Source of the DNA: Eledone cirrhosa | Taxonomy: Eukaryota | Assembly (NCBI GenBank): GCA_964016885.1 | Contig: OZ024743.1 | Span: 63,550,001 to 63,614,000, forward strand | DNA length: 64,000 nt | Direction: 5' to 3' | In this document: piece after piece, positions 1,968-35,773 of the stretch | How the letters are laid out: each line of letters starts with the position of its first letter | Numbering within the stretch: position 1 is the stretch's first letter | The notes under the pieces: generated by a model | Told to the model about the DNA's origin: nothing | Seen by the model: the letters and a program-made list of their open reading frames with translations, nothing else | Databases searched by the model: none | Position numbers and translations under genes: made by a program

Positions 1968-2424
1968 TATATATATATAAATACACAATGATACCTCGCA
2001 GTATGAATCTAATTCCTTCCATGACCGAGATCATTTTATGATTTACTCATTTTACAAATCAATTTTTCCCATTGAAATTAATTAAAATATATATAATCTG
2101 TTCCAGCCCCCCCAAAACCACCTGAAAATCATTTTTTATGGGTTTTAAAACAGAAAAGGTGCAGTTACAAGAAAAATTACAATTATAAAAACATAATAAA
2201 AGAGAAGACAAAAGAAATATGTAAACTGGTTTTATTAATTGTATGAAACTTGCTCATACTGCGGATTTCCACTTGTACTACAAGACAAAAATTCGCACAA
2301 GCCTCAGCTCATACAGCAAATTATTTGTACAATGGGGCACTCGTACTGCGAGGTTTAGCATCACACCTGAATAAACTTAATGAAAATTTGACACCTCGTC
2401 CATACTTATTATTATCATCATATA

Positions 2425-2612
2425 GGGCAGTGAATTGGCAGTATCGGTAGAGGGTTGGACGCCATGCTTTGATGCATAGAGTTACGGCCCTTGCCATTCT
2501 GAGTTCAAATCCCGCCTAGGTTAACTTTGCCTTTCATCCTTACGGGGTCGATAAAATAAAGTACCAGTAATGTACTGGGATAATTGCTGGCCTTGTGCCA
2601 AAAGTAGAAACA
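2425..2612 (+). mobile_element. tRNA-derived SINE family S1, full length, with TSD
   Basis: A-box-like TGGCAGTATCGG, B box GAGTTCAAATCCC, central GCCTTTCATCCTTACGGGGTCGATAAAA, 3' end CCTTGTGCCAAAAGTAGAAACA; direct repeat ATTATTATCATCATATA(G) at 2408-2425 and 2613-2630. Confidence 0.9.
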
Positions 2613-3188
2613 ATTATTATCATCATATAGAAATATATATATATAGAATATATATATATATATATATACACACACATATATATATATATGGAGTATCGCT
2701 AAAAGTATGGCCGGAGTATTGCTAAAAGCTTTCTCCGATAATGTATTTATTTATATATATATATATATATATTTTGGTGCGCCCGGCTGACTAAACTCAC
2801 TCGATATGCAAATTAGGCTGCTCAGCCATTAATATGCATAAGGAAAGTATATACTTTCAGACGTTCAACCATCTGGCAAGAAGGTATACGATGTTGACGA
2901 TAGCTAATAAGCTTGAAACTACTACATCGTTCCTGTGTCAGTATTGAACAAAAAGGTGATGTGGTTGCATAATTCGGGCTATTTGTTTGTTTACAAACAA
3001 ACCGAGCATTATAATAAATGTTCGGTAAACTGATACGTGCATATATATATGTGTGCATGTATGTATATATATACATACTACTGTACGTCTGTATACATAT
3101 ATGTATGTACGTATACATACATACATACTTACATTTAAGTAACTGCCGTACTAAGAGTGAGAAAGGAAATTTCGTTTCATTCTATTCC

Positions 3189-3940: not shown

Positions 3941-5976
3941 GATTTCATTTATTAGTCACAAGAGCCGACATGTAGGGGACAATACAAAGACAGAGACAGT
4001 GGGGGTTTACAATAAGGTCGAGTAAAAGTGCACGATGGCAAGACTAATTTAACAATGAAGATATAAAAATATAAAATAAACTATGCATAAATATAACAAA
4101 ATAAATTCCCCGATAGGGGGTGGACGACCCTGGGGTGACTCGGGTACCCCACCAATCCTGAACCGCTTGGTAGAGGGCAGTGAGTGCCTGGCAACATTCC
4201 AGGTGCCAGTCACCCAGTCTCGGTCTCTTCTTGACCCAGGACTGCAGCTCAGTCAGAGAAATGAGCTGCGGAAAGGCCCGTCTGATAAACGGCGACCATA
4301 CCTGTTCACCGTTGAGGCAGAATATCTGGAGATGTCGCAGCCTCAACGCATGTCTGCGCATCATTAGCCACGGCATGCCCAGCCCTCCGTGTAGAGGGTG
4401 CTGGCAACAGATGGACCGCCTCACCAACGGAACTTGATGAGGTGTGGACGGGGGCAAGGCACGATGGTCAGGCGGTAGTAGATGACGGATGCGATGTACG
4501 CATTCGCCACCTCCGCGCGACCTTTCAATGATAGCTTCCTCCCAGCCCATTTTTGGGTGAGACTGGCTACTATGCTCGTTACCTCGTCCCAATTCTTTTC
4601 CACCTGGAGGTCTGGTCCGAACCAAACCCCGCGCGACTTTACCGGTCCGTCCGTCCAGCGCCCCACAACGCTGTTGGACAGCATGGGATTGCCTCTCCAG
4701 ATTCCGAGCTGCAAGCCCACTGACATTTCCGGGTTAAGTTTGGCTCCTGTCAACCTTTCATATTCCTTCAATAAAGTGCCAACCACCTCGATTTCTGAGG
4801 TGTTCGACACCATCATGGTGATGTCGTCCGCATAAGCCAACACCGCCTTTCCACACCCCGTTTGAGCAGGATGCCCTGCAACAGCTCCAGCTTCAGCAGT
4901 AAAGGCTCGAGAGTCAATATGTACAGAAGGGAAGAGAGAGGGCACCCTTGACAGACCAATCGGGAGAGCCGAAATGGTTCCGAGAGGTGGCCATTAACCT
5001 TGACCACCGAGCGTGTGCCGCTGTGCATTGCAGCAATCCAGCTTCTGAAGACAGGACCGAAGCCAGCTGCTTTGAGGACAAACTCCAGATACCGATGGTC
5101 GACCCTATCGAATGCTCTCGATTGATCTAAATTGATCAGTGCCCCACTGAAGCCAGGTTTACACCCTACCCTCTCTATGATGTATCGCATGAGGTGGAGA
5201 TCGTCATGTATGGACCTGGCTGGGATTGTGCAAGTTTGTGCCTCCTGAACCAAATCCTCGACGACAAGCGCCAATCTCTTTGCTAGCACCTTGGCCAAAA
5301 TCTTAAACTCTGTGTTGAGCAGAGTTATGAGCCTGAAGTTGTCTAATGTATCCCTCTTGTTCTCGTCTTTCCTTATCAGTGTCACCACTCTCCTACTCAC
5401 AGAACTGGGAATACTCCCATTCTGCTGCCAGTTGCAGTAGAGTGCTTCGAGGAGATCGGAGAACAAGTCTGGCATATTTACGTAAAGCTCGTAGGGCAGG
5501 CCATCCAAACCGGGTGACTTGCGCCTCATGCAGCTGACAAGGGCGTCCTGAATTTCAGCTGAAGTAATCGGCCTTTCGCAGCGCTCAGCGTCGAGCGTCG
5601 AGATGCGCGGAAAGCCATCAAGGTAGGGACTGAAATCCGCTACTCTCTCTGACTCGTCACTCTCCCCGAACAACCGAGCAAAGTGCTGGCGAAAGGCCTC
5701 ACACATCCGCTTGGAATCGTTTATCTCGTGTCCGTCTCGGTTCACCAAAGACCGAATTGTGGTTTTATTACCATGCTGCACCTCCGCCATGCAGGCCCAT
5801 TGAACAGCTTTGGTTCCCTCATTTCTCAGTGCACCGCCTTAGCTCTGACAATGCAACCTTCGTGTTTCGCATTGAAGAAATGGTCTAATGCCATTCTTGC
5901 CGCTAACACGTCAGTTGCAATGCCACTACAAGAAGCCTCGTCTAACTTATCTATCAGCTCCCCCTCCTTTCTATTT
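3941..5976 (-). mobile_element. Tx1/L1-clade LINE, 5'-truncated, frameshifted and internally deleted copy
   Basis: ORF fragments 4813-5790, 4421-4945 and 4044-4625 are homologous to the intact ORF2 (KSPGLDG, LDQSRAFDRV, YADD); putative TSD TGATAATAATAAT at 3928-3940 and 5977-5989. Confidence 0.92.
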
Positions 5977-5992
5977 TGATAATAATAATAAT

Positions 5993-6197
5993 TTGTAATT
6001 TTAGCAGAAGACCAGCGAGTTAGGTGAATGGAAAGTTGTTTATATCAACCCCAGTACTTTACTGGTACTTATTTTTTTGATCTCAGAAGGATGAAATGCA
6101 AAGTTTACCTCAGCAGGTAATCAGAATGTAAAAAGGTGAACCCAATGCTGCAAAGCATTTCTACCAACACTCTAACGATTCTGTCAATCCACCACAT
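5993..6197 (-). mobile_element. SINE S1-related, older diverged copy
   Basis: Degenerate AAGGATGAAA.GCAAAGTT core and head; preceded by (AAT)4. Confidence 0.7.
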
Positions 6198-6207: not shown

Positions 6208-6395
6208 GTTTCTACTTTTGGCACAAGGTCAGCAAATACTTCAGTGCATTACTGGTGCTTTATTTTATTGACCCCGTAAGGATGAAAGGCAAAATTAACC
6301 TCAGCGGGATTTGAACTTAGATCATAAAGGGCCATAACTCTATGCTACAAAGTATGGCGTCCAACCCTCTACAGATACTGCCAATCCACCGCCCT

Positions 6396-6396
<1 letters not shown>
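6208..6396 (-). mobile_element. SINE S1, full length
   Basis: Reverse complement of 2425-2612; bounded by AAT repeats. Confidence 0.88.
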
Positions 6397-6432
<36 letters not shown>

Positions 6433-6679
6433 GTTTCTTTATTGGCCACAAGGACTGACAGGAAGAAAGACATTAGAGACGGCCGAGGACGATACAATGT
6501 GGGTTTTGGCCATGTAAAAAAGGTTATAACAAGATAGAAATATCAAAAAAATCAAACAACAAAAAATTCCCCAATAGGGGGGAAACTTCCGAGGGTCACT
6601 CATGGCAAAAACCACACAAAAGACCACGGCCACCCTGCCCGCCAGGGCAAGCGCCCTCTCTTAGTTTTCCCACCCTCAG

Positions 6680-9600
6680 TCTACAGGCGCATACTCAGAG
6701 CGGGCCCATTCACTCGGACCAGATTCGCCACTTTCACCCACCTTTCAAGAAACTTACTAGAAGACAGCACTTGCCTCTCCACCCTGATTTTCCTCTTCAA
6801 GTGAAACTTGAAAAAGTTAATCGGGGATTGGCTGAAGAGGAAAGTGTCGTCTTCAACCCTTTCAACCTTGTCCACCACACAATCTCTTTCACTATAGCCA
6901 CCAGGCAGATGAAAACTGCCTGAGGTGTTATATGCACTATGGACTCAGTCGATAACAGGATCCATCCTACACGCGACAGTAGCTGTTCTACATAGCTCCA
7001 CAAGTCAGCAATGCTCGGGCACTGAACGAGTGCGTGCAGCAGAGTTTCGTCGCCCTGTGCGCATCTCGGACAGGCTTGGCTGACAGCACCTCCGTGCCTG
7101 TAGAGCTTATCCCGAACCGGCAACGCTTCCCAGAAGCACTGCCAGGCCAGGGATTTCTGGAAGTTGTCCATAGGCTCCAGTCTGAAAGTTATCTTGAAGA
7201 GAGCAAACAGCTGATCGTCTTCTACGCCCAGAGTCTCCCCAAGAACATTGTTGCTCTTTCCCTCGATTAGCCCTCTATAGAACGCCGAGGTGGATGTTCC
7301 ACTGATACTAGTGCCCAGCTGGTAGAGGGTAGGGAGTGCTTGGAAACATTCCAGCTTCCAAGCGCTATCCCTCTGTCTTTTCCTGATCCAGGACTGCAGC
7401 TCCGTCAAGGAGACGAGCTGGGGAAAAGCGCGTCTGGCAAACGGCGACCACACCTGTTCACCGCCAAGGAAGCACCAGAGATATCGCAGCCTCAGCGCAT
7501 GGTTGCGCATCATCAGCCACGGCATGCCTAGTCCTCCACGCAATGGGTATTGACAGCAAATGGATAGTCTGACCATAGGAGCACGTCCCTTCCACAAAAA
7601 GCGGAAGAGAAGGCGTTCCATTTTGGTCAGAGTTGGGCAGGGGCAAGGTACAACGGTCGGGTGGTAGCAGATGACGGACGGTATGTATGCATTCGCCACT
7701 CCGCCTGACCTTTCAGAGACATCATCCTCTCGGCCCATTTCTGGGTGAGAGAAGCCACCTTGCTCGTCACCTTGCTCCAGTTTTTCTCCATCTGGAGGTC
7801 CGGACCGAACCAGACCCCGAGCAATTTAACCAGTCCTTCTGTCCAGCGCCCCACAACACTTTTGGACGGCATGGACTTGCCTCTCCAGGTGCCGAGTTGC
7901 AAGCCCACTGACTTTTCCTGGTTTATCTTTGCTCCTGTCACCGCTTCGTATTCCTTGAGAGCGGCGCCGAGCATCTGGACGTGTTTGGTGCTCGACACCA
8001 CCATGGTGACGTCATCGGCGTAAGCATCCCAGTTCACGTGGGATCTCCCCTCATCGTCTCCAATTTGTTAAGTAACGGCTCTAGGGCCAGTACGTACAAG
8101 AGGGACGAGAGGGGCAACCCTGGCGGACCGAGCGCATGATGCTGAAATGCTGCGACAGGTGACCATTCACCCTTACAATCGAGCAGATGTCGCTGTGCAT
8201 CGCAGCGATCCAGCCCCTAAAAACGGGCCTGAAGCTGGCCACCTCGAGGACCGCAGCCAGGTACCGATGGTCGACCCTATCAAATGCTTTAGATTGATCC
8301 AAGTTGATCAGGGCCCCACCCATGTCAGGTTCCTTAACCACCCTCTCTATGATGTATCGCACGGGATGGATCTGTCCGGAATGGCGCAAGTCTGCGCCTC
8401 TCCCACCAGATCACTGATGACAAGCACCAATCTCTTTGCTAACACCTTGGCCAAAATCTTAAACTCTGCGTTTAGCAGAGTTATGGGCCTGAAGTTGTCT
8501 ATATTGTCCCCTTTGTTCGGGTCTTTTCTCAGCAGCATCCTCACTCCCCGGCTCACAAAGCTGGGAATGCTCCCGTTCTGCTGCCAATTGCAGTAGACAT
8601 CTGCCAAGAGGTTGCCGAACAAGTCTGGCATATTCGCATAAAGCTCGTAAGGCAGACTATCCAAACCTGGCGATTTACCCCTCGTACAGTCAGCAGTCAG
8701 ACATTGCTTCCCGTATTTCACCTGCTGTTATCGGCTTTTCGCAGCACTGCACTGCGGTCATCGAGAGCCGCACAGCTGTCCGCCGAGGTATGCATCGAAG
8801 TCCATACTCCGATCCGGCCTGCCGCCGCTCCCGAACAATTGAAAAGCTGCACACATCTGCTCGGGTTCGAGCAACATGCGCCCGTTTTGATCAGGCAAAG
8901 ACTGAATTGTGGACTTGTTGCCACATCGTGCCTCCACCACCTGGGCCCATTGAACGGCTTTCGCTCTAGCTCTGACAACGCAGCCTTCATGCTTTGCGTT
9001 GAAGAATTGGTCGAGTGCCAATCTCGCTGCAAGCACGTTGGTTGCGATGCCTGTCCTAAACGCCTCTTCTAGCTTTCTAACTAACTCTCCTTCTACTCTA
9101 TTTTCCTCTATCACTACTCCTTTGCTAAACCTTATCGATTCTACTCTAATAGCCCCTTTCAGAGTAAACCACCACCTGTTGTTGACGATCGCACCTGTCA
9201 ACGTACGCTTAACTAATTCGCTAATCCGGTCTCTGTAAGCTTTATGCGCCGGGAACGACGCATTCAGCTTCCAGTAGCCGGACCCTTGCCTATGGAGTCT
9301 ATCAAAGTCAACTTCACAGATCACAAATTTGTGGTCCGTGTAGTCGACTACTTTAAATTGTGGACAGCCTACACTAGCCTTATCTGTTTCCCTACAGAAT
9401 GCCCTATCTAAATATAATCTGGATGACCCGATGCGGTTTCCCCATATCCACATTGGCACATTCAGATAATCCAGTCTATACCTGTCAGACAGTTCAAAAC
9501 ATCTGAGCAGGTTGTTGAGGCTTTTACACCCTCCTGCCCTGTCTACTAGCCCCACATAATCCCAGCGTGCATCTAAGATAAATTTGGCCATCCTGCTCCT

Positions 9601-9943
9601 GTTGGGGCGTAGACGGCTACTAGCCTGACAGCATTGCCTTCGCTGCCAGTCATGTCCAGCACCACCGACTTACCGTCTGGGTCCAGAAAGATGGCCCGTA
9701 TGGCAAGATCCAAGCCTCTTCGAAAAAGCACGGCAACCCCTCCCCTTGAACCTGAATGGCTGGGAGATGCGTATACATCGTAGCCGCCGAAGATTGGTGC
9801 GAAGGCTCGTCCTTCGGAGATTCTGGTCTTGCTGATGGCCACCACATCTATATTTAGTGACCTGAAGTCGTTGAGCAGGTGACCCTGCTTCCAAGATTAC
9901 CCAGGCCACGTACATTTATACTGCCTATTCTAAGTATGGCCAA
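6680..9943 (-). pseudogene. ORF2 (APE endonuclease + RT + CCHC) of subfamily A, multiple frameshifts
   Basis: Pieces 9573-9845, 8758-9591, 8347-8721, 8081-8389, 7627-8037 and 6797-7738 are collinear with the intact 1139-aa ORF2. Confidence 0.92.
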
Positions 9944-9975
9944 GTTGGATGAGAAACGGGGTAAGTGAGAAAGGA

Positions 9976-11967
9976 TCACTTACCTTGATTTTGTGGTGAA
10001 GGGACAGTAGAATCGTCCCTTTGGCTGGTCATGGGTGTTTCCAAGAGGATGTCGGTGTAACTGACCCTCTGAAGTCTCCAACTACGTTGGGGAATTTTTC
10101 TTTTAACAGTTTGTAATGTTCTATTTTGATTTCAATTATGTTTATGTTTTTCGAGAGAGTTCTTGGTGTTGGTGGGGTGTAGTAATGTTTTTCTGTGATG
10201 TCTGTGTGCTGCTTTATATGTTGTAAGAGTTCTTTATTTGCCATGTTTATGACTGTGTACTTTTTGGGAGGAGGGGTGATTTTGTTTCTGTTTTCTTGTT
10301 GCTGTTGGGTGTGTGTGTTTTGTTGTGTTTGCGATGTTGGTGTTTTTGGTGATGCTGGTGGTGGTTTGGTTGTTGTTGGTGGTGATGCTTGTGGTGGTGA
10401 TGGTGATGGTGGTGGTGTTGCTGCAAGTCTCCTTGCAGCCTTTACCCCTCTTTGTCTACCTTCGCTTTTGGAGGGTGAAGCTAAGGGGTTTTTCCTTTTT
10501 TGTTTTTTTGTGGCAGACCGTTTGCCACTTCCCTCCCACCTCACACTCCATGTCGGATTCTGTGACGTCTGGGAGGGGTATGAGCTCCACTGCTGTTGGT
10601 GTTGGTAGTGGAGCCCTCTCCGGCGATTTTTCCGCCGGTGTAGCTACTGCGACTGTTGGTGTTGCCGCCACTGCTGCCGCTGTTTTAGTTGTCCGTGGCC
10701 TTGGTATGGGTGCCATGGACGTTGCCCTCCTACTCACCGTGGAAGGGTCTTCTGCCTCTGTTGCCTGCCCTGCTCTTGGTAGCAACGGATCAGGCGTTGG
10801 AAGGAGGGGGCCCTCTTATTGGCTGTCTTCTGCGGGCAGAAGGTCCTGAGGTGACCCTTCTGCCCACAGAGATAGCACTTTGGGCGCCTTCCTTCCATGC
10901 TTATAGGGAGTTGGAGCCCTTCTTCGAGGTCTATGATGTCTGGGATGGCCTCAATGCACTCCTGGTCAGTTTGTATTAGCATTTGCATGCCTATTCCTGA
11001 CCAGTTCTCTCTTCCCATTCCCTGTATTTGCAGTATGGTGGTCTTCTCCTCGATTCCAGCCAGTACAGACGCGGTCAGCCAAGGTATGGGCACGTTGGGT
11101 GGGACCTGGGTCACTTTGACCCTCCTAATTTTCTGCCCGCAGTAGGAGAGCACCAAGACTATCTCCTCACTCTTTAGGGTTTCCAAAGAGTGAGATTCCG
11201 CCTCTTGGAGGGTGGAAAAAAGTACGTCTACAGTGGCGTACTTTTTGCCTCGGGTGATGTGGGTTTTGCACGCCCAGACACACCCCAAGGCCTTTTGGAT
11301 TTGAGCGTCTGTGGCTCTCTCCACCTGATGTGACATTTTGCTTACAGTGCGGTAAGTCACCATGCGCAACTTTGAAGAAATCGGGTGGAGGTTTCAGGGA
11401 AACTCTATTGTCGTTTCTTGACACCATGGCTCTTGCGACTGCCATCTCCTCCTCCGTGACTAGCACTGTCTTTATATTTCGGGCCACATCTGCGAAAGAT
11501 GTGGCCCCTTTTTCAGCGGCACCATTATTGCTGCTACTACTGCTGCTACTGGCCTTGTTGTTGGTGCTGTTGTTATTGCTATTGCTACAAACGGTGTTGT
11601 TGGTGTTGTTGCTGTTATCACTGTTGTAGTTGGTTGTGTTTTTGGTGCCACCGTTGTTGTTGTTTTCGGTGCAATTTGTATTGTTGCTGTTGGTGTTGTC
11701 GTTGTTTATTTTCTTGTTAGTGGTATTAATATCGTTGTTGCATTTGTTGTCATTTTTTTCTGTTGTCTGTATTTTGGTTGACGCTGTTATTATTGTAGTT
11801 GGTGTGGTAATTTTTTCAAAATTCGTGTTCTCAGTGTTGTTGTCTTTGTTCACGTTGTTTGTGGTGGTGTTTGTTGTATGAATTTCACTAACCCTCCTCT
11901 CAACTGTTACGCCGTTGTCACACGACAGCAGGCATATTGCGGGGGGGGGGGGGGGGGGCTCAGCCAT
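9976..11967 (-). pseudogene. ORF1 (Gag-like nucleic-acid-binding protein) of subfamily A, frameshifted
   Basis: Pieces 11167-11967, 10734-11369, 10456-10785 and 10029-10544 share ERATDAQIQKALG, THITRGKKYATVDVLF and LPDVTESDMECEVG with the young ORF1. Confidence 0.9.
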
Positions 11968-12181
11968 GTTTTTTTTGTTTTTCTTTAAATTTTCAAAAGT
12001 AAAATGTTCAAATATTGTTCAAATATTTGGGCCCCTTCACAGGGCAAAGTCCCTTACACAACAAGAAAAATTTAACAACAAATAATTTTAACAGGCAAAT
12101 AAAGTGACTTACTGGGAGCGAGCAAAAGACGTCTGATTAGACCAATAATAATAATAATCATTTTCCAATAATAATAATAAT

Positions 12182-12286: not shown

Positions 12287-12333
<47 letters not shown>

Positions 12334-12593
12334 TTTCTTTATTAACCACAAGGGTTTACATAAAGTAGACATTAAGGACAGTGCAGGACAATGCAGGACG
12401 GTACAAATGGGCATTTCTGCGTGTAAAAAAACAAAAACAGAGGATGTAACAAAAATAACAATGAAAATAACAATGAAAAATTCCCCAATAGGGGGGAGAC
12501 TTCGGAGGGACATTTGTGGAGAAAGCCCAGTAAAAAGCCACAATGACCCTGACCACCAAGGCAAGTGCCCTCTCCCAGTTTTCCACCTTTAGT

Positions 12594-15500
12594 TTACAGA
12601 TATATACTCAGAGTCGGCCCATTCACTCGGGCCATTCTTGCTTCTCTCACCCATCTTTCAACAAAATGCTGGGAAGAGAGCACTTCCTTCTCTACTCTGA
12701 TTTTCCTTTTCAAATGAAATTTGAAAAAGTCAATCAGAGCATCACCGAAGAGGTAAGTGCTCGTCTTCAGCCCTTTCAAACGTGTCCACCATACTATCTC
12801 TTTCGCCATGGCCACCAGACAGATAAAAACTGCCTGCCCTTCCCGGCTAAAGGAGGAGGGCGGGGCAATCCTCACGATAGACTCAGATGATAGCTGGATC
12901 CGTCCTAAACGCGACAGCAGGTGTTCGACATAAACCCACAAGTCAGCAATTTTCGGACACTGGACGAGTGCGTGCAGGACGGTTTCGTCGCCCTGCGCGC
13001 ATCTCGGACATGCCCGGCTGACGGCACCTCCATGCCTGTAGAGTTTATCCCGAACTGGCAAGGCTCCTCGGTAGCACTGCCAGGCCAGAGATTTCTGGAA
13101 GTTGTCCATAGGCCCTGGCCCGAAAGTTCTTCCGAAGAGATTGGCTAGTTGATTTTCGTCGACGCCTAGAGTTTCCCCAAGTACGTCGTCGCTCTTCCCC
13201 TCCACTAATCCTCTATAGAACGCCGAGGTGGAGTTTCCACCGATCACATTGCCCGATTGGTCGAGGGCTGTGAGCGCCTGAAGACATTCCAGTCTCCAGG
13301 CGCTCCCTCTCGGTCTTCGCTTGACCCAGGACTGCAGCTCCGTCAAGGAAACGAGCTGGGGAAAAACGCGTCTAGCAAACGGCGACCACACCTGATCACC
13401 GTCGAGGAAGAGGTGGAGATGTCGTAGCCTGAGCGCGTGCCTGCGCATCATCAGCCACGGCATGCCCAGCCCTCCACGTAGCGGGTGTTGACAACAGATG
13501 GACCGCCTGACCATCGGAGCACGTCCCTTCCACAAAAAGCGAAAGAGCAAACGCTCCAGCGCAGTCAGGCGAGGCTTAGGACAAGGTACGACGGTTAGGC
13601 GGTAGCAGATGACAGACGCGATGTACGCGTTAGCCACCTCCGCTCGACCTTTCAGGGATAGCTTCCTCTCCGCCCATTTCTGGGTGAGAGAAGCCACCCT
13701 GCTCGTCACCTCGTCCCAGTTTTTGTCCGTCTGGAGGTCCGGACCGAACCAGACCCCTAGCAATTTAACCGGTCCGTCCGTCCAGCGCCCGACGACGCTG
13801 TTGGACGGCATGGACCTGCCTCTCCAGGTGCCGAGCTGCAGGCCCACTGACTTTTCCTGGTTGATCATTGCTCCTGTCACCGCTTCGTATTCTCTTAGTG
13901 TAGTGCCGATCGCCTCGATGTGTTTGGCGTTCGACACCACTACGGTGACATCGTCCGCATATGCTGACACGGATCTTCCGCATCCTAGTTCGCGCGGGAC
14001 TCCCCTCAACGTCTCCAGTTTGTGCAGTAATGGCTCGAGAGTCAATACGTACAAGAGGGACGAGAGGGGACATCCTTGGCGGACCGAGCGCATGATGTTG
14101 AACGGTTCCGACAGGTGACCGTTCACTCTCACCACAGAGCAGATGTCGCTGTGCATGGCAGCGATCCAGCCTCTGAAGACGGGCCCAAAGCCAGCCGCCC
14201 TCAGGACTGCCGCTAGGTAACGATGGTCGACCCTATCGAAAGCTTTCGACTGATCTAAATTGATCAAGGACCCACCCGTGCCATGTTCCCTAGCTACCCT
14301 CTCTACGATGTATCGCATGAGGTGGAGGTTGTCGTGGATGGATCTGTCGGGAATGGCGCATGTCTGCGCCTCTCCCACCAGACCACCAACGACAAGCGCC
14401 AACCTCTTTGCTAGCACCTTGGCCAAAATCTTAAACTCTGTGTTTAGCAGAGTTATGGGCCGGAAATTGTCTATGTTATCCCCCTTGTTCGGATCCTTTC
14501 TCAGCAGTGCCACCGCTCCTCGGCTCACAGAACTGGGAATTCTCCCGTTCTGTTGCCAGTTGCAGTAGACGTCCGCCAAGAGGCCTCCGAACAAGTCTGG
14601 CATCTGTACGTAAAGTTCATAGGGCAGACCATCCAAACCAGGCGATTTACCCCTTGTGCAGCCAGTCATTGCCTCCCGTACTTCAGCGGCTGTTATCGGC
14701 TTTTCGCAACACTTCGCCTCAGTGGCCGAGAGCCGCGGCAGTCCGTCGAGGTAGACACTAAAGTCCATCCCTCTACCCGGCCCCCCGCTGCCCCCGAACA
14801 GCTGAGCGAAGTGTCGCTGAAAAGCTTCACACATTTGCCCGGGATCGAGTAGCATGCGCCCGTCGTGGTCCACCAAAGACCGGATCGTGGCTTTGTTGCC
14901 ACGACGCGCCTCCGCCACTCGGGCCCATTGAACGGCTTTCGTCCCCTCGTGTCTGAGAGCACGCACCCTAGCTCTGACAACGCAGCCTTCGTGCTTTGCA
15001 TTGAAGAATTGGTCAAGGGCCAATTTCGCCGCAAGCACGTCGGTCGCAATGCCTTTGCTAAGCGCCTCGTCTAATTTTCTAACTAGTTCTCCCTCTGCTC
15101 TATTTTTCTCTATTGCTAAAGCCTTACTAAACCTAATCGATTCTATTCTAATCGCTCTTTTCAGAGCAAACCACCACTTGTTGTTGACGATGGCCCCCGT
15201 CAACGCCCGCTTAACTAGTTCGCTAATCCGGTCTCTGTAGGCCTTGCGCGCTGGTAAGGACGCGTTTAGCTTCCAGTAGCCGGGTCCTCGTCTATGAAGC
15301 CTATCTAAGTCAAGCACACAGATCACGAATTTGTGGTCCGTGTAGCTGACTATTTTGAATTGTGGACAGCCTATGCTAGACCTATCTATTTCCCTACAAA
15401 ATACTCTATCTAGATATGATCTGGATGACCCTATGCGGTTTGTCCAAGTCCACATTGGCACATTCGGGAAATCCAATCGGTACCTGTCAGACAGTTCAAA

Positions 15501-16013
15501 ACGCCTGAGCAGGTTGGTGAGGCTCTTGCACCCTCCACCCCTATCCGCTAATCCCACACAGTCCCAGCGTGCATCTAAGATCCCGTTCCAGTCGCCCACT
15601 AACACTAAAGAGCGGGACGTTCCAAGAAAGGTCTCCAGACGCCGGAAGAAATCAGGCCGCCCTGCTCCTGTCGGGGCATAGACGGCCACTAGCCTGAAAG
15701 CTTGCCCGTCTCCGCTGGTCACGTCCAGCACCACCAGCTTACCCTCTGGGTCCAGGAAGATAGCCCGTATGGCGAGATCCAAACCTCTCCGAAAAAGCAC
15801 AGCAACTCCTCCACCGGATCCAGGACGGCTGGGAGATGCGTACACATCGAAGCCGCCGAAGATCGGTGCGAAGGCCCGTGCTTCGGAGATTCTGGTCTCG
15901 CTGATGGCCACTACATCTATGTTTAGTGACCTGAGGTCGTTGAGCAGGTGACCCTGCTTCCATGACGACCCCAAGCCACGCGCATTTATGCTGCCTATTC
16001 TGAGTGAGGTCAT
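12594..16013 (-). CDS. ORF2p, 1139 aa: APE endonuclease, reverse transcriptase, C-terminal CCHC
   Basis: SINARG/SET/VYAP/GDWN/YLDR/TDH (APE); KSPGLDG, NFRPITLLN, LDQSKAFDRV, RQGCPLS, YADD (RT); GGLG and CPRC-x8-H-x4-C typical of the L1/Tx1 clade. Confidence 0.96.
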   Translation of the reverse strand: MTSLRIGSINARGLGSSWKQGHLLNDLRSLNIDVVAISETRISEARAFAPIFGGFDVYASPSRPGSGGGVAVLFRRGLDLAIRAIFLDPEGKLVVLDVTSGDGQAFRLVAVYAPTGAGRPDFFRRLETFLGTSRSLVLVGDWNGILDARWDCVGLADRGGGCKSLTNLLRRFELSDRYRLDFPNVPMWTWTNRIGSSRSYLDRVFCREIDRSSIGCPQFKIVSYTDHKFVICVLDLDRLHRRGPGYWKLNASLPARKAYRDRISELVKRALTGAIVNNKWWFALKRAIRIESIRFSKALAIEKNRAEGELVRKLDEALSKGIATDVLAAKLALDQFFNAKHEGCVVRARVRALRHEGTKAVQWARVAEARRGNKATIRSLVDHDGRMLLDPGQMCEAFQRHFAQLFGGSGGPGRGMDFSVYLDGLPRLSATEAKCCEKPITAAEVREAMTGCTRGKSPGLDGLPYELYVQMPDLFGGLLADVYCNWQQNGRIPSSVSRGAVALLRKDPNKGDNIDNFRPITLLNTEFKILAKVLAKRLALVVGGLVGEAQTCAIPDRSIHDNLHLMRYIVERVAREHGTGGSLINLDQSKAFDRVDHRYLAAVLRAAGFGPVFRGWIAAMHSDICSVVRVNGHLSEPFNIMRSVRQGCPLSSLLYVLTLEPLLHKLETLRGVPRELGCGRSVSAYADDVTVVVSNAKHIEAIGTTLREYEAVTGAMINQEKSVGLQLGTWRGRSMPSNSVVGRWTDGPVKLLGVWFGPDLQTDKNWDEVTSRVASLTQKWAERKLSLKGRAEVANAYIASVICYRLTVVPCPKPRLTALERLLFRFLWKGRAPMVRRSICCQHPLRGGLGMPWLMMRRHALRLRHLHLFLDGDQVWSPFARRVFPQLVSLTELQSWVKRRPRGSAWRLECLQALTALDQSGNVIGGNSTSAFYRGLVEGKSDDVLGETLGVDENQLANLFGRTFGPGPMDNFQKSLAWQCYRGALPVRDKLYRHGGAVSRACPRCAQGDETVLHALVQCPKIADLWVYVEHLLSRLGRIQLSSESIVRIAPPSSFSREGQAVFICLVAMAKEIVWWTRLKGLKTSTYLFGDALIDFFKFHLKRKIRVEKEVLSSQHFVERWVREARMARVNGPTLSIYL

Positions 16014-16048
16014 GTTTAAAATAGAGTGGAAAAGATGGGAAAGACCAC

Positions 16049-18148
16049 TTACCGTACTTTTGGTAGAGGAGGGATGGTTTTTACATCCCTTTTCACTTGA
16101 TCGTCTGGTGAAGGGACCGTTGAATCGTCCCTTCGGCTGGTCGTCGGCTCTTCTAAGAGAATGTCTGAGTATACTCTTCGATTGATGGTTCCTCCTAGGT
16201 CCCTGAAATCACCAACTGCGTTGGGGAATTTCGTTTTAATATTTGTGTATTGTTTCTGTGCTATTTTTAGCAGTCTTATGTTAGTTGGCGTTTTGATTGG
16301 TGCTGGTATTATGTAGTCCTGTTGTGAAATGTCTGTGTGTTCAATTATGTAAGTCATTAGTTTCTTGTTGTGTGTATTTATTGCCGTGCATTTGTTTTTC
16401 TGGGGGTGGGGTGTGGTTCTGCTATTTTCTTGTCGTTGTTGCTGGGTGTGTGTGTTTTGTTGTTGTGTTTGCGATGTTGGTGCTTGTGGTGGTGGTGTTG
16501 AAGGTGTTGTTGGCGGTGGGGTTGTCGCCGGTGGTGATGGTGGCGCTAGTGTGGGTGGTGATGGTGTTGGTGTTGTTGCTGCTGTGGGTCTCTTTGCAGT
16601 AGACCTTACCCTTTTCTCATTTCTTTCCTCACTTTTCAAAGGCGACGATGCGCTGCTTCTGCGTTTGTGCCTTCTTACGACCTTTTGCCATCTCTCTCCC
16701 ACCTCACACTCCATGTCTGATTCTGTGAGGTCGGGGAGGGGTACCAACTCCACTCTTTCACTTGTTGTTGTTGGTGATGTTTGCACTGGAGTCTCTGTTG
16801 CAGCTGCATTTGGTATTGCTGTTGTTGTTGTTAGTATTTCCACTGCTGCTGCTGTTTTTGATTTCCGTGGAGTGGGTATGGGTGCCACGGGCCTATCGTT
16901 CCTGGTTGCCGCTTGTCCTGTTGCTGGTAGCCGTGGAGCCGGATTCGGAAGGAGGGGGGTTTTCTCCTTTCTCAGGGTCTTCTCGTTGCAGAAGGCCCTG
17001 AGGTGAGTCTTCGATCCACAGCGAAAGCATTTCGGGCGTTTGCCCTCAACACTTATGGGCAGTTGAGTGCCGTTATCGAAGTCTATCACATCCGGGATAG
17101 CTTCGATGCACTCCTGGTTGGTTTGGATTAGCATCTCAATGGAGGAGCCGACCCAATCTTCTCTTACTTTTTTCTGTACTTGCAGTACAGTTGTTTTGTC
17201 CTCGATTCCGACGAGGACAGACGCGGCCAGCCAAGAAGGGGTCATTCCGGGGGGGACGTGGGTCAGTTTGACCCTCACAATTTTTTGCCCGCAGTAGGAG
17301 GGCACCAACACCATTTCCTCGCTCCTTAGGGTCACTACTGATTGGGCCTTTGCCTCCTGGGGTGTGGCAAAAAGTACGTCTACGGTGGCGTATTTTTTGC
17401 CTCGGGTGATGTGCGTTTTCCTCTGCCACACAGACCCCAAGGCTTTTTGTATTTGGGCCTCTGTGGCTCTTTCCACCCTACGGGATTTTGTACTTACTGT
17501 ACGGTACGTGACCGTACAGTGCTCTTGGGTTTCGAAAAAATTTTTCGCTGCCTTGCAGATTGCTCGGTGTCCGTTCTTTGTCACCATCTTCTTCGCTTCC
17601 TCTAATTCCTCATTTGTTATGAGGATTGTTTCCAGGTTTTTCGCAATACCTGCAAATGAGATTGGTTTTTCTCTGCTGTTGTTGTTGTCGTCGTCAGAGC
17701 TGCTGGTACTTTTGTTGTTGCTGCAGGTACTACGACTACTGCCTCCGCCGCTGTTGCTGTGGTTGTTGTTGGTGTTGCTGCTGCTAATGCTGTTGTTGTT
17801 TATGCTGCTGGTGATGCTGTTGCGGCTGCTACTGTTGTTTTCATTGTCACTGTTGCTGTTGTTATTACGGCTGCTACTGCTATTATTCCTGACGTCAGAC
17901 GAATGAACTGGGTTTTCGTATTTCCCGCACACCTGTTTCGTCGCTGTCGTCGTCGTCGTGGAGAAACCTTGCACGCTTTGCACGAGACTTTTCTTTTCTT
18001 TCGTCGCTTGCGAAAGAGAAGGGAGGGAGAGAGACACATTTAAAGAAGGGAGGGAGAGAGACAATCTTCTCTCTGATGTAGTGATGATTGAGGAAGAAGA
18101 AGACGGAATGAGTGGGAGTGACGTATGAAATTTCTTTTTCGTAGCCAT
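16049..18148 (-). CDS. ORF1p, 699 aa from first ATG: N/S-rich N-terminus, conserved central domain, single CCHC knuckle, P/T/Q-rich tail
   Basis: ATG at 18148 in AAAAACATGG context (the track start 18181 is non-ATG); CFRCGSKTHLRAFC = CX2CX4HX4C. Confidence 0.92.
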   Translation of the reverse strand: MATKKKFHTSLPLIPSSSSSIITTSERRLSLSLPSLNVSLSLPSLSQATKEKKSLVQSVQGFSTTTTTATKQVCGKYENPVHSSDVRNNSSSSRNNNSNSDNENNSSSRNSITSSINNNSISSSNTNNNHSNSGGGSSRSTCSNNKSTSSSDDDNNNSREKPISFAGIAKNLETILITNEELEEAKKMVTKNGHRAICKAAKNFFETQEHCTVTYRTVSTKSRRVERATEAQIQKALGSVWQRKTHITRGKKYATVDVLFATPQEAKAQSVVTLRSEEMVLVPSYCGQKIVRVKLTHVPPGMTPSWLAASVLVGIEDKTTVLQVQKKVREDWVGSSIEMLIQTNQECIEAIPDVIDFDNGTQLPISVEGKRPKCFRCGSKTHLRAFCNEKTLRKEKTPLLPNPAPRLPATGQAATRNDRPVAPIPTPRKSKTAAAVEILTTTTAIPNAAATETPVQTSPTTTSERVELVPLPDLTESDMECEVGERWQKVVRRHKRRSSASSPLKSEERNEKRVRSTAKRPTAATTPTPSPPTLAPPSPPATTPPPTTPSTPPPQAPTSQTQQQNTHTQQQRQENSRTTPHPQKNKCTAINTHNKKLMTYIIEHTDISQQDYIIPAPIKTPTNIRLLKIAQKQYTNIKTKFPNAVGDFRDLGGTINRRVYSDILLEEPTTSRRDDSTVPSPDDQVKRDVKTIPPLPKVR

Positions 18149-18649
18149 GTTTTTTTGTTTAAAATGAAATTTTGGGTACAAAACCCCAATAACTGGTTAT
18201 TTAACCCCGAAGGGCCAAATAACGGACAGAAAGACCCCTCTCACGAGGAGGAGGGTGTCTTTATCAACAATTTGGTTCAAGTTTTAAACAATTTACAATT
18301 GTTTTAACGGTTAAAAATTACTATACCTTACAGAGCCGAGCCTCCGTCAACCATGGCATTCAATAATAATAATAATAATAATAATGATTTCTTTATTAAC
18401 CACAAGGGTTTACATAAAGTAGACATTAAGGACAGTGCAGGACAATGCAGGACGGTACAAATGGGCATTTCTGCGTGTAAAAAAAAACAAAAACAGAGGA
18501 TGTAACAAAAATAACAATGAAAATAACAATGAAAAATTCCCCAATAGGGGGGAGACTTCGGAGGGACATTTGTGGAGAAAGCCCAGTAAAAAGCCACAAT
18601 GACCCTGACCACCAAGGCAAGTGCCCTCTCCCAGTTTTCCACCTTTAGT

Positions 18650-21600
18650 TTACAGATATATACTCAGAGTCGGCCCATTCACTCGGGCCATTCTTGCTTC
18701 TCTCACCCATCTTTCAACAAAATGCTGGGAAGAGAGCACTTCCTTCTCTACTCTGATTTTCCTTTTCAAATGAAATTTGAAAAAGTCAATCAGAGCATCA
18801 CCGAAGAGGTAAGTGCTCGTCTTCAGCCCTTTCAAACGTGTCCACCATACTATCTCTTTCGCCATGGCCACCAGACAGATAAAAACTGCCTGCCCTTCCC
18901 GGCTAAAGGAGGAGGGCGGGGCAATCCTCACGATAGACTCAGATGATAGCTGGATCCGTCCTAAACGCGACAGCAGGTGTTCGACATAAACCCACAAGTC
19001 AGCAATTTTCGGACACTGGACGAGTGCGTGCAGGACGGTTTCGTCGCCCTGCGCGCATCTCGGACATGCCCGGCTGACGGCACCTCCATGCCTGTAGAGT
19101 TTATCCCGAACTGGCAAGGCTCCTCGGTAGCACTGCCAGGCCAGAGATTTCTGGAAGTTGTCCATAGGCCCCGGCCCGAAAGTTCTTCCGAAGAGATTGG
19201 CTAGTTGATTTTCGTCGACGCCTAGAGTTTCCCCAAGTACGTCGTCGCTCTTCCCCTCCACTAATCCTCTATAGAACGCCGAGGTGGAGTTTCCACCGAT
19301 CACATTGCCCGATTGGTCGAGGGCTGTGAGCGCCTGAAGACATTCCAGTCTCCAGGCGCTCCCTCTCGGTCTTCGCTTGACCCAGGACTGCAGCTCCGTC
19401 AAGGAAACGAGCTGGGGAAAAACGCGTCTAGCAAACGGCGACCACACCTGATCACCGTCGAGGAAGAGGTGGAGATGTCGTAGCCTGAGCGCGTGCCTGC
19501 GCATCATCAGCCACGGCATGCCCAGCCCTCCACGTAGCGGGTGTTGACAACAGATGGACCGCCTGACCATCGGAGCACGTCCCTTCCACAAAAAGCGAAA
19601 GAGCAAACGCTCCAGCGCAGTCAGGCGAGGCTTAGGACAAGGTACGACGGTTAGGCGGTAGCAGATGACAGACGCGATGTACGCGTTAGCCACCTCCGCT
19701 CGACCTTTCAGGGATAGCTTCCTCTCCGCCCATTTCTGGGTGAGAGAAGCCACCCTGCTCGTCACCTCGTCCCAGTTTTTGTCCGTCTGGAGGTCCGGAC
19801 CGAACCAGACCCCTAGCAATTTAACCGGTCCGTCCGTCCAGCGCCCGACGACGCTGTTGGACGGCATGGACCTGCCTCTCCAGGTGCCGAGCTGCAGGCC
19901 CACTGACTTTTCCTGGTTGATCATTGCTCCTGTCACCGCTTCGTATTCTCTTAGTGTAGTGCCGATCGCCTCGATGTGTTTGGCGTTCGACACCACTACG
20001 GTGACATCGTCCGCATATGCTGACACGGATCTTCCGCATCCTAGTTCGCGCGGGACTCCCCTCAACGTCTCCAGTTTGTGCAGTAATGGCTCGAGAGTCA
20101 ATACGTACAAGAGGGACGAGAGGGGACATCCTTGGCGGACCGAGCGCATGATGTTGAACGGTTCCGACAGGTGACCGTTCACTCTCACCACAGAGCAGAT
20201 GTCGCTGTGCATGGCAGCGATCCAGCCTCTGAAGACGGGCCCAAAGCCAGCCGCCCTCAGGACTGCCGCTAGGTAACGATGGTCGACCCTATCGAAAGCT
20301 TTCGACTGATCTAAATTGATCAAGGACCCACCCGTGCCAGGTTCCCTAGCTACCCTCTCTACGATGTATCGCATGAGGTGGAGGTTGTCGTGGATGGATC
20401 TGTCGGGAATGGCGCATGTCTGCGCCTCTCCCACCAGACCACCAACGACAAGCGCCAACCTCTTTGCTAGCACCTTGGCCAAAATCTTAAACTCTGTGTT
20501 TAGCAGAGTTATGGGCCGGAAATTGTCTATGTTATCCCCCTTGTTCGGATCCTTTCTCAGCAGTGCCACCGCTCCTCGGCTCACAGAACTGGGAATTCTC
20601 CCGTTCTGTTGCCAGTTGCAGTAGACGTCCGCCAAGAGGCCTCCGAACAAGTCTGGCATCTGTACGTAAAGTTCATAGGGCAGACCATCCAAACCAGGCG
20701 ATTTACCCCTTGTGCAGCCAGTCATTGCCTCCCGTACTTCAGCGGCTGTTATCGGCTTTTCGCAACACTTCGCCTCAGTGGCCGAGAGCCGCGGCAGTCC
20801 GTCGAGGTAGACACTAAAGTCCATCCCTCTACCCGGCCCCCCGCTGCCCCCGAACAGCTGAGCGAAGTGTCGCTGAAAAGCTTCACACATTTGCCCGGGA
20901 TCGAGTAGCATGCGCCCGTCGTGGTCCACCAAAGACCGGATCGTGGCTTTGTTGCCACGACGCGCCTCCGCCACTCGGGCCCATTGAACGGCTTTCGTCC
21001 CCTCGTGTCTGAGAGCACGCACCCTAGCTCTGACAACGCAGCCTTCGTGCTTTGCATTGAAGAATTGGTCAAGGGCCAATTTCGCCGCAAGCACGTCGGT
21101 CGCAATGCCTTTGCTAAGCGCCTCGTCTAATTTTCTAACTAGTTCTCCCTCTGCTCTATTTTTCTCTATTGCTAAAGCCTTACTAAACCTAATCGATTCT
21201 ATTCTAATCGCTCTTTTCAGAGCAAACCACCACTTGTTGTTGACGATGGCCCCCGTCAACGCCCGCTTAACTAGTTCGCTAATCCGGTCTCTGTAGGCCT
21301 TGCGCGCTGGTAAGGACGCGTTTAGCTTCCAGTAGCCGGGTCCTCGTCTATGAAGCCTATCTAAGTCAAGCACACAGATCACGAATTTGTGGTCCGTGTA
21401 GCTGACTATCTTGAATTGTGGACAGCCTATGCTAGACCTATCTATTTCCCTACAAAATACTCTATCTAGATATGATCTGGATGACCCTATGCGGTTTGTC
21501 CAAGTCCACATTGGCACATTCGGGAAATCCAATCGGTACCTGTCAGACAGTTCAAAACGCCTGAGCAGGTTGGTGAGGCTCTTGCACCCTCCACCCCTAT

Positions 21601-22069
21601 CCGCTAATCCCACACAGTCCCAGCGTGCATCTAAGATCCCGTTCCAGTCGCCCACTAACACTAAAGAGCGGGACGTTCCAAGAAAGGTCTCCAGACGCCG
21701 GAAGAAATCAGGCCGCCCTGCTCCTGTCGGGGCATAGACGGCCACTAGCCTGAAAGCTTGCCCGTCTCCGCTGGTCACGTCCAGCACCACCAGCTTACCC
21801 TCTGGGTCCAGGAAGATAGCCCGTATGGCGAGATCCAAACCTCTCCGAAAAAGCACAGCAACTCCTCCACCGGATCCAGGACGGCTGGGAGATGCGTACA
21901 CATCGAAGCCGCCGAAGATCGGTGCGAAGGCCCGTGCTTCGGAGATTCTGGTCTCGCTGATGGCCACTACATCTATGTTTAGTGACCTGAGGTCGTTGAG
22001 CAGGTGACCCTGCTTCCATGACGACCCCAAGCCACGCGCATTTATGCTGCCTATTCTGAGTGAGGTCAT
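18650..22069 (-). CDS. ORF2p, 1139 aa (copy 2)
   Basis: Intact; visible difference from copy 1 is AREPG vs AREHG. Confidence 0.95.
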   Translation of the reverse strand: MTSLRIGSINARGLGSSWKQGHLLNDLRSLNIDVVAISETRISEARAFAPIFGGFDVYASPSRPGSGGGVAVLFRRGLDLAIRAIFLDPEGKLVVLDVTSGDGQAFRLVAVYAPTGAGRPDFFRRLETFLGTSRSLVLVGDWNGILDARWDCVGLADRGGGCKSLTNLLRRFELSDRYRLDFPNVPMWTWTNRIGSSRSYLDRVFCREIDRSSIGCPQFKIVSYTDHKFVICVLDLDRLHRRGPGYWKLNASLPARKAYRDRISELVKRALTGAIVNNKWWFALKRAIRIESIRFSKALAIEKNRAEGELVRKLDEALSKGIATDVLAAKLALDQFFNAKHEGCVVRARVRALRHEGTKAVQWARVAEARRGNKATIRSLVDHDGRMLLDPGQMCEAFQRHFAQLFGGSGGPGRGMDFSVYLDGLPRLSATEAKCCEKPITAAEVREAMTGCTRGKSPGLDGLPYELYVQMPDLFGGLLADVYCNWQQNGRIPSSVSRGAVALLRKDPNKGDNIDNFRPITLLNTEFKILAKVLAKRLALVVGGLVGEAQTCAIPDRSIHDNLHLMRYIVERVAREPGTGGSLINLDQSKAFDRVDHRYLAAVLRAAGFGPVFRGWIAAMHSDICSVVRVNGHLSEPFNIMRSVRQGCPLSSLLYVLTLEPLLHKLETLRGVPRELGCGRSVSAYADDVTVVVSNAKHIEAIGTTLREYEAVTGAMINQEKSVGLQLGTWRGRSMPSNSVVGRWTDGPVKLLGVWFGPDLQTDKNWDEVTSRVASLTQKWAERKLSLKGRAEVANAYIASVICYRLTVVPCPKPRLTALERLLFRFLWKGRAPMVRRSICCQHPLRGGLGMPWLMMRRHALRLRHLHLFLDGDQVWSPFARRVFPQLVSLTELQSWVKRRPRGSAWRLECLQALTALDQSGNVIGGNSTSAFYRGLVEGKSDDVLGETLGVDENQLANLFGRTFGPGPMDNFQKSLAWQCYRGALPVRDKLYRHGGAVSRACPRCAQGDETVLHALVQCPKIADLWVYVEHLLSRLGRIQLSSESIVRIAPPSSFSREGQAVFICLVAMAKEIVWWTRLKGLKTSTYLFGDALIDFFKFHLKRKIRVEKEVLSSQHFVERWVREARMARVNGPTLSIYL

Positions 22070-22104
22070 GTTTAAAATAGAGTGGAAAAGATGGGAAAGA
22101 CCAC

Positions 22105-24204: not shown

Positions 24205-24705
24205 GTTTTTTTGTTTAAAATGAAATTTTGGGTACAAAACCCCAATAACTGGTTATTTAACCCCGAAGGGCCAAATAACGGACAGAAAGACCCCTCTCAC
24301 GAGGAGGAGGGTGTCTTTATCAACAATTTGGTTCAAGTTTTAAACAATTTACAATTGTTTTAACGGTTAAAAATTACTATACCTTACAGAGCCGAGCCTC
24401 CGTCAACCATGGCATTCAATAATAATAATAATAATAATAATGATTTCTTTATTAACCACAAGGGTTTACATAAAGTAGACATTAAGGACAGTGCAGGACA
24501 ATGCAGGACGGTACAAATGGGCATTTCTGCGTGTAAAAAAAAACAAAAACAGAGGATGTAACAAAAATAACAATGAAAATAACAATGAAAAATTCCCCAA
24601 TAGGGGGGAGACTTCGGAGGGACATTTGTGGAGAAAGCCCAGTAAAAAGCCACAATGACCCTGACCACCAAGGCAAGTGCCCTCTCCCAGTTTTCCACCT
24701 TTAGT

Positions 24706-28125: not shown

Positions 28126-28159
28126 GTTTAAATAGAGTGGAAAAGATGGGAAAGACCAC

Positions 28160-29733: not shown

Positions 29734-30007
29734 TAATAATAATAATGATTTCTTTATTAACCACAAGGGTTTACATAAAGTAGACATTAAGGACAGTGCA
29801 GGACAATGCAGGACGGTACAAATGGGCATTTCTGCGTGTAAAAAACAAAAACAGAGGATGTAACAAAAATAACAATGAAAATAACAATGAAAAATTCCCC
29901 AATAGGGGGGAGACTTCGGAGGGACATTTGTGGTGAAAGCCCAGTAAAAAGCCACAATGACCCTGACCACCAAGGCAAGTGCCCTCTCCCAGTTTTCCAC
30001 CTTTAAT

Positions 30008-33427: not shown

Positions 33428-33462
33428 GTTTAAAATAGAGTGGAAAAGATGGGAAAGACCAC

Positions 33463-35560: not shown

Positions 35561-35773
35561 GTTTTTTTGTTTAAAATGAAATTTTGGGTACAAAACCCCA
35601 ATAACTGGTTATTTAACCCCGAAGGGCCAAATAACGGACAGAAAGACCCCTCTCACGAGGAGGAGGGTGTCTTTATCAACAATTTGGTTCAAGTTTTAAA
35701 CAATTTACAATTGTTTTAACGGTTAAAAATTACTATACCTTACAGAGCCGAGCCTCCGTCAACCATGGCATTC

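Follow-up and report, generated by a model that had tools for sequence, protein, structure and literature searches.

The window analysed here, a stretch of 64,000 nucleotides from Eledone cirrhosa (contig OZ024743.1, positions 63,550,001 to 63,614,000), carries a short interspersed element, S1, close to its beginning and a chain of Tx1-like LINEs behind it. This arrangement raises the question which enzyme copies the SINE. In the initial annotation, the two were viewed as a candidate site-specific SINE/LINE pair in which S1 is mobilised by the ORF2 protein of this very Tx1 element. We conclude that S1 and Tx1 form a real and well-supported candidate pair. In the reading that we regard as probable, S1 is an abundant, dispersed SINE that would be copied by the ORF2 protein of ATT-ending Tx1 elements via a predicted hairpin with a CUUGU loop present at the 3' ends of both; we infer this mobilisation from the sequence match, the covariation, the polarity and the target-site duplications described below. 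If true, this would reveal where one of the largest repeat families in an octopod genome obtains its enzyme. In Octopus vulgaris, about 12% of the genome consists of SINEs, which among recent insertions are mostly unclassified.

The SINE S1, its copies and its abundance

Positions 2408-2630, annotated as a SINE, comprise the element and an exact 18-bp target-site duplication. The element itself occupies 2426-2612 on the plus strand, measures 187 bp and deviates by 5.9% from its family consensus (Table 1). It has the features of a SINE, as it is short, dispersed, present in high copy number, non-coding and flanked by target-site duplications. A TTTT run is absent from its interior. The head of S1 is likely tRNA-derived. 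ARAGORN made a tRNA-like call on positions 15-98 of the S1 consensus at a lowered threshold only; at the default threshold no tRNA call was obtained on the S1 head, and two S1 copies gave no tRNA match in Rfam. In its likely head type, S1 resembles the octopus SINEs OK, OR1 and OR2, which are reported to be tRNA-derived (Ohshima and Okada, 1994), with OR2 being listed as a CORE SINE. The resemblance of the central block to the MetaSINE domain, which had been put forward tentatively, gained no support: five words taken from the block gave 0 matches in the MetaSINE supplement, and the printed alignments of BivaMeta-SINE1 and BivaMD-SINE1 show no resemblance by eye. With regard to the CORE, Ceph, alpha and beta central domains, the supplement of PMC5786205 yielded no match.

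An exact 31-base piece of the S1 tail matches the 3.0-Gb genome 66,175 times (0 matches for the reversed control), which sets the copy number, as counted by this exact tail pattern, at 66,175 or more. Evenly spaced genome stretches totalling 400 kb contain 33 S1 3' ends, and extrapolation from this figure places the genome total roughly at 250,000 copies. The older sister SINE, S2, is represented by at least 6,737 similar ends. Two types of rearranged S1 copies were encountered. Three loci (L016, L048, L271) hold fold-back copies in which an inverted copy of the 3' half precedes the 3' half, and in four others (L022, L024, L025, L026) the first ~43 bases of the head are tandemly repeated upstream of a complete copy.

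Six further SINE copies had been cited as residing within the LINE chain and in its orientation. All of them do share the minus strand with the LINEs and end on ATTAT; however, only four are S1 copies (6208, 12182, 36030, 37172), and the other two are older sisters (5993, 36853). The copy at 2426-2612 is positioned about 1.3 kb outside the LINE chain and on the strand opposite to it.

Table 1. Positions of the SINE and LINE features in the window
Feature	Position	Strand	Remark
S1 target-site duplication, 5' copy	2408..2425	+	18 bp, begins ATTAT, exact match to 2613-2630
S1 A-box-like element	2436..2447	+	1 mismatch to the A-box consensus
S1 B-box-like element	2503..2511	+	matches B box
S1 central block	2529..2570	+	common to older sister SINE S2
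S1 predicted 4-bp hairpin TGGC/GCCA, CTTGT loop	2588..2600	+	16 nt from loop end to ATT tail
S1 target-site duplication, 3' copy	2613..2630	+	18 bp, takes in ATTATT tail
T3, 5'-truncated Tx1-like LINE	3941..5977	-	ATTAT-initiated duplication of 13-14 bp
Older, more diverged SINE of the S1 group	5993..6192	-	73% to S1
S1 copy	6208..6397	-	after T2 tail
T2, older broken Tx1-like LINE	6432..12143	-	3' hairpin 6444-6456; best 3' match to S1
S1 copy without body and hairpin loop	12182..12286	-	joined form single in genome
T1, full-length Tx1-like LINE	12332..18361	-	two open frames
T1 3' hairpin AACC/GGTT, CTTGT loop	12344..12356	-	followed by AATAAA
T1 ORF2 frame	12597-16208	-	APE endonuclease, RT (YADD), C-terminal zinc knuckle
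T1 ORF1 frame	16052-18196	-	CCHC knuckle
T1 5' UTR hairpin GGGT/ACCC, TTTGT loop	18174..18186	-	related to 3' hairpin
Three more T1 copies, head to tail	18386..35773	-	99.9%; 99.5% and 5'-truncated; 99.3%
T2b (Tx1 family) 3' fragment	35810..36018	-	directly after S1 tail
S1 copy, 5'-truncated	36030..36123	-	between two Tx1 fragments
Older sister SINE, S2 type	36853..37030	-	same hairpin, degraded; 83% to S1
S1 copy	37171..37349	-	upstream of LINE chain
S1 copy	39077..39260	+	outside chain, opposite strand; 19-bp ATTAT-initiated duplication

The Tx1-like LINEs of the window and the genome

The chain on the minus strand (3941-35773) is arranged head to tail and is composed of the truncated T3, the broken T2 and T1 in four copies, which are 99.3-99.9% alike. 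T1 possesses all of the features of the L1/Tx1 clade, namely two open reading frames, an APE endonuclease, a reverse transcriptase and zinc knuckles, and its protein scores 297 bits with the ORF2 of Xenopus Tx1 versus 180 bits with human L1 ORF2p. Among named relatives, the one nearest to the LINE protein comes from Argonauta hians (73%). In a quick tree, the elements of the genome form one clade (support 100) among Tx1-like proteins; this tree was built without an L1 reference, and Tx1-like is therefore the safe label for T1. Pieces of both T1 and S1 were recovered from all four contig sets compared, with the tail region being repeat-masked and three of these sets being thin.

Tx1 tail patterns detect 14,571 ATT-followed ends in the genome and 6,707 other ends, of which the 100 listed mostly continue in (ATCT)n. 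When 129 Tx1 tail loci were clustered, six clusters had an ORF2 upstream, three of them ending on ATT and three on ATCT; the identity of their ORF2 C-termini to that of T1 ranges from 56 to 93%, and the hairpin loop and AATAAA are kept in all six. The three ATCT-ending families (L126, L136, L137, L142, L145, L191-L240) carry the same 3' hairpin. The (ATCT)n and (ATT)n ends represent a target switch inside one Tx1 lineage, which should be of use for mapping endonuclease specificity. Microsatellite preference is a trait that this lineage has in common with Kibi, (TC)n, with Koshi, (TTC)n, and with the crocodilian (TTCC)n/(TTTC)n Tx1 families (PMC4494074). The families studied here differ in their targets, (ATT)n and, in the sister families, (ATCT)n, and the accessible part of that paper describes no SINE partner for the Kibi, Koshi and crocodilian families.

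Head-to-tail T1 arrays with a spacing of about 6,056 bp are present in the window (12332-35773) and also in G000:C1 near 55.42-55.45 and 56.17-56.18 Mb. Two junctions of the array in the window are identical, so that both tandem duplication and repeated insertion are possible origins. At three loci (L041, L057, L083), T1-like 3' ends are preceded, at a distance of about 5.9 kb, by a Tx1 5' end whose 5' UTR is a different one and whose ORF1 is 50-56% like that of T1. This arrangement suggests that 5' UTR and ORF1 have been exchanged. ARAGORN reports a tRNA-Thr at 10562-10645, in low-complexity sequence of the T2 ORF1 region; this call is likely spurious.

A common 3' end and its predicted hairpin

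The SINE and LINE ends quoted at the outset are present at their places. That these ends align was upheld in so far as the common end is above chance, but the gaps placed in the alignment are unneeded. In an ungapped comparison of the terminal 30 nt, S1 agrees with T2 and T2b at 19 positions (p<=0.0005 for T2, ending at 6432; 2000 dinucleotide shuffles) and with T1 (12332) at 16 positions (p=0.0015; dinucleotide shuffles), and MAFFT aligned ten Tx1 ends and two SINE ends with zero internal gaps. T3 and the ATCT families reach 11-13/30 when offset by one base. A gapped local score against S1 is significant for T2 (p=0.002) and not significant for T1 (p=0.19). The likeness between S1 and Tx1 is confined to the last ~25 nt, and this brevity counts against the pairing, since the common stretch is shorter than in described pairs; for the SINE/LINE pairs of bivalves, the accessible part of the source gives 35-61 bp.

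Contained in this stretch is a hairpin common to S1 and Tx1, with a stem of 3-4 bp and a CUUGU loop, situated 16 nt before the (ATT)n tail. Its covariation was evaluated in 12 related rows that we had chosen ourselves. All 12 rows close the loop with C-G. At the second pair, the LINEs have C-G, apart from two with U-G, and the two SINEs have G-C. Most rows show G-C as the third pair, the T1 types having A-U instead, and the fourth is unpaired in five of the 12. In total, 85% of the cells are paired, versus 10-54% in slid controls, two-sided changes occur in three of the four pairs, and none of 500 shuffles reaches the score. RNAalifold returns the identical 3-bp stem. The signal from single-sequence folding is weak, with z-scores of -1.9 to +0.5 for the LINE ends and a non-significant +0.31 for S1. 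An additional end with the same hairpin (TGCC/GGCA) and an ATT tail is found at 37040-37130 on the minus strand of the window; no ORF2 was found upstream of ends similar to it.

One might ask if a likeness of about 25 nt could have arisen by chance or convergence in AT-rich sequence, with target sites held in common only through a preference for ATT-rich DNA. The shortness of the match, the non-significant gapped score with T1 and a co-location that is not specific to one partner would all be compatible with such an origin. We nevertheless consider it highly improbable, given that the anchored ungapped comparisons reach p<=0.0015, that the spacing to the tail is equal, that the stem covaries and that two SINE families carry the hairpin.

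Hairpins related to that of the 3' end are also located 30-55 nt ahead of the ORF1 start in five of 12 Tx1 5' UTR regions, that of T1 among them, and in one Tx1 family the 5' UTR hairpin has the stem polarity of S1 itself. The S1 end scores 31 and 26 against the Tx1 5' UTR hairpin (p=0.001 and 0.004) versus at most 21 against any 3' end. The 16-nt spacing and the terminal AGAAAC of S1, on the other hand, fit the Tx1 3' end. Judged by these matches, Tx1 is the apparent donor of the S1 tail, be it from its 5' UTR or from its 3' end. We tentatively put forward a wider possibility, which we ourselves hold to be somewhat doubtful: cephalopod Tx1 might be a stringent L1-clade element of animals whose RNA is gripped by a CUUGU hairpin at both transcript ends, the SINE tail might have been captured from a 5' UTR copy, and the choice of RNA (by the hairpin) and the choice of DNA site (ATT or ATCT, by endonuclease and tail repeat) might be separable modules.

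The position of the hairpin permits a different view of its function. AATAAA follows directly behind it in all Tx1 ends. The same hairpin is present in the ATCT-ending families, so that it does not by itself distinguish the ATT lineage. Its placement before AATAAA, its recurrence in 5' UTRs and its presence in families with different targets would fit a relaxed mobilisation by Tx1, in which solely the pairing of the (AUU)n tail with the nicked target is needed and the hairpin is a captured remnant, or serves the 3' processing or stability of the RNA. SINEU and Tx1-Mar, so far as the accessible text goes, provide a precedent for Tx1 trans-mobilisation without a common tail. In S1 and S2, however, the loop, a paired stem and the spacing of 16 nt have been retained although AATAAA has been lost from both, and a hairpin-less form of S1 has not been amplified, as it has one match genome-wide, the copy at 12182, and no siblings. 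We therefore view relaxed mobilisation as unlikely. The absence of siblings is as expected if the hairpin is needed for copying, although a single deletion proves little.

Two chimeras (L046/L241 and L242) consist of an S1 body and a Tx1 terminus joined at the common hairpin. Since S1 bodies with a Tx1 terminus occur only twice in the genome, they do not form an intermediate subfamily. A SINE with a longer Tx1-like tail was sought as well and rejected: of 35 pattern matches, 30 loci were read, those that could be placed are Tx1 ends, and none has a SINE body that continues into the tail.

Target site, timing and the candidate enzyme

S1 and Tx1 use the same ATTAT target with the same polarity, as had been stated. 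In 400 kb of unbiased stretches, 23 of 24 S1 tails are followed by ATTAT, against a background of 0.32%. Among 125 S1 ends, a set that includes 30 loci picked by a pattern fixing the first three bases, 63 are associated with duplications of 7-20 bp (one of 29 bp; median 15 bp); by column counts, ATTAT occupies positions 1-5 in 59 of these 63, and a C is found at position -1 in 31. A uniform duplication test detected duplications at 64/141 S1 ends (controls 7-10) and at 15/29 unbiased S1 ends (controls 0-2), each with a median of 16 bp, and at 16/60 Tx1 junctions (shuffled controls 7-10, p about 0.11) with a median of 15 bp. In the comparison of duplication lengths that had been called for, the medians are close and both elements give ATTAT-initiated duplications, but the Tx1 count is not clearly above its controls. 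The weakness of this count is due to the exclusion of pure ATT duplications and to the large number of rearranged junctions. Clear single Tx1 duplications of 8-19 bp are present at six loci (L035, L067, L128, L262, L266, L276). ATTAT begins 70 of 76 ATT-type Tx1 ends, most of which were found with ATT-requiring patterns, and the 5' junctions of truncated Tx1 copies often lie within ATT tracts. The target preferences of the two elements are not identical, as the ATT tracts comprise 1-25 units at Tx1 tails versus mostly 1-3 at S1, and R4 ends adjoin 18/76 Tx1 tails versus 1/59 S1 tails.

The term site-specific does not apply to S1, which is dispersed and prefers a motif, the pentamer, rather than a locus. 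ATT-type Tx1 tails are followed by an S-type SINE on the same strand in 19 of 76 cases and on the opposite strand in one, and ATCT-type tails in 0 of 41. Of 73 S1 copies sampled without regard to Tx1, none follows a Tx1 tail, and S1 is found on the same strand after four of 30 tails of the CR1-like family CR1a. Because S1 also sits in CR1 tails, its position in the chain does not name the partner, and we rejected location in the LINE chain as independent evidence.

The ages of the elements bear on the question which Tx1 family was involved. The divergence of 98 near-full S1 copies from their consensus has a median of 7.8% (range 1.6-21%), a figure inflated by subfamilies. Nearest-neighbour divergence of the ends is mostly 0-3% for T1, 2.5-4% for T2b and mostly 4-6% for T3. 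By this measure, most S1 copies are older than the intact T1 of the window, and the assignment of S1 to the ORF2 protein of this particular element is overstated. At four loci (L035, L054, L103, L131), the duplications hold Tx1 sequence, and S1 was thus inserted after Tx1; at L276, the duplication holds S1 sequence, and T3 was inserted after S1. This reciprocal nesting suggests that the activity of S1 overlapped with that of older Tx1 families of the T2b/T3 type. Among the loci examined, none clearly shows S1 inserted after a young T1 copy. S1 was likely carried in the main by older sisters of T1, namely the T2, T2b and T3 families, rather than by the young T1 itself.

By analogy with target-primed reverse transcription and with the L2 elements of zebrafish, the copying of S1 by Tx1 can be pictured as follows. 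RNA polymerase III, directed by the A and B boxes, would transcribe S1 and continue into the (AUU)n tail, and the Tx1 ORF2 protein would bind the hairpin and cut the bottom strand of a (C/T)ATTAT site. The freed ATAAT-3' end could then pair with the AUUAU tail and prime reverse transcription, and a second nick about 15 nt away would give rise to the duplication. Both elements would end in a fresh C/A-ATTAT site onto which further copies may stack head to tail; each insertion would remake the target at its own end, and the chains would thereby be explained. Recognition of a 3' hairpin by ORF2p, specific for the loop and tolerant of stem changes, as in ZfL2-1/ZfL2-2 and UnaL2, serves as the model for this mechanism; in zebrafish ZfL2-1 and ZfL2-2, the loop sets the specificity and the stems are exchangeable (PMC4176376, in the sections available). 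Those elements belong to the L2 clade and were tested by experiment, whereas the S1/Tx1 hairpin is much smaller and predicted.

A partnership of this kind is not as unusual for the L1 clade as had been presumed, since stringent L1 pairs are on record from maize, sorghum and Chlamydomonas, and a Tx1-mobilised SINE from crocodilians. Crocodilian SINEU is inferred to be mobilised by Tx1-group LINEs (Tx1-Mar), and the argument, as in the case of S1, relies on a common target preference and overlapping ages (PMC4494074, accessible part). According to the same text, SINEU carries snRNA heads and poly(A) tails, resembles no LINE at its 3' end and targets a transposon; S1, in contrast, combines a likely tRNA-type head with an (ATT)n tail, has its 3' hairpin in common with Tx1 and prefers a pentamer target. 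The stringent pairs of the L1 clade include ZmSINE2/3 with LINE1-1_ZM and SINEX-3_CR with L1-1_CR and, in the available portions of the surveys, number only three among 58 pairs (PMC3472496, PMC3747384). Like S1 and Tx1, they unite a tRNA-SINE with an L1-clade LINE through a common 3' end, and the monocot pairs likewise have a hairpin with a conserved loop and compensatory stem changes. The plant and algal pairs have 50-80 nt in common (for plant pairs, 50-100 nt is also given) and possess A or T tails, with no target preference stated in those portions (PMC3472496, PMC3747384); S1/Tx1 differs in its animal Tx1 lineage, its ~25 nt and its (ATT)n tail. The kind of partnership is consequently known, and a Tx1-tailed SINE was not found described: our search, which covered full-text literature, retrieved neither a paper on such a SINE nor one on the partner of an octopus SINE. 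If true, S1/Tx1 would provide an animal case for the question if L1-clade elements were ancestrally stringent, which has so far been argued from plants and algae. With an intact young Tx1, a candidate signal of 13 nt, natural compensatory variants and sister families with another target, this question becomes directly testable.

The enzyme might alternatively be supplied by another LINE, be it a young (ATT)n-ending CR1-like element, an R4/Dong-like element or an unsampled family. The comparison outside Tx1 encompasses 12 ends (two RTE, three R4-like, five CR1-like, two I-like) and is an incomplete survey in which no L2, Hero or R2 ends were recovered. Over its last 30 nt, S1 agrees with the RTE and R4-like ends at 7-9 positions and with the CR1-like and I-like ends at 4-11, none of these values being significant. 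None of these other LINE ends matches the S1 3' end better than Tx1 does, and all four groups were rejected as partners on tail sequence. CR1a is young, has intact 957-aa frames and at least 5,320 ends, terminates in (ATT)n and has the same ATT polarity as S1, with ATTAT in 29 of 30 ends. Its tail, however, agrees with S1 at 4/30 positions, and its duplications are not above chance (3/23; controls 2-3), compared with 15/29 for unbiased S1 (p=0.007); a dependence of S1 on CR1a was rejected accordingly. R4-like elements are common in the same tracts, but they carry (AAT)n on the sense strand and match S1 at 8-9/30 positions, and a dependence on R4/Dong was likewise rejected. Taking both sides into account, we judge that a LINE other than Tx1 is an improbable source of the enzyme.

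The sampling of LINE ends produced several observations in their own right. At least three R4/Dong-like families with (AAT)n ends (L031, L032, L037, L168, L182) are placed tail to tail with Tx1 in one microsatellite, on opposite strands. All 18 R4-like ends that adjoin Tx1 tails are on the opposite strand, which follows from the (AAT)n terminus that R4-like elements have in their sense orientation. In the young CR1-like family (L313-L315, L333-L362), a segment of the 3' UTR is duplicated, and the (ATT)n tail is not accompanied by target duplications. The window contains an assembly gap of 200 N at 43194-43393 and, at 286-1967 and 49334-59039, two RTE-like LINE families with (GAT)n ends and a PHD-like cysteine cluster past the reverse transcriptase.
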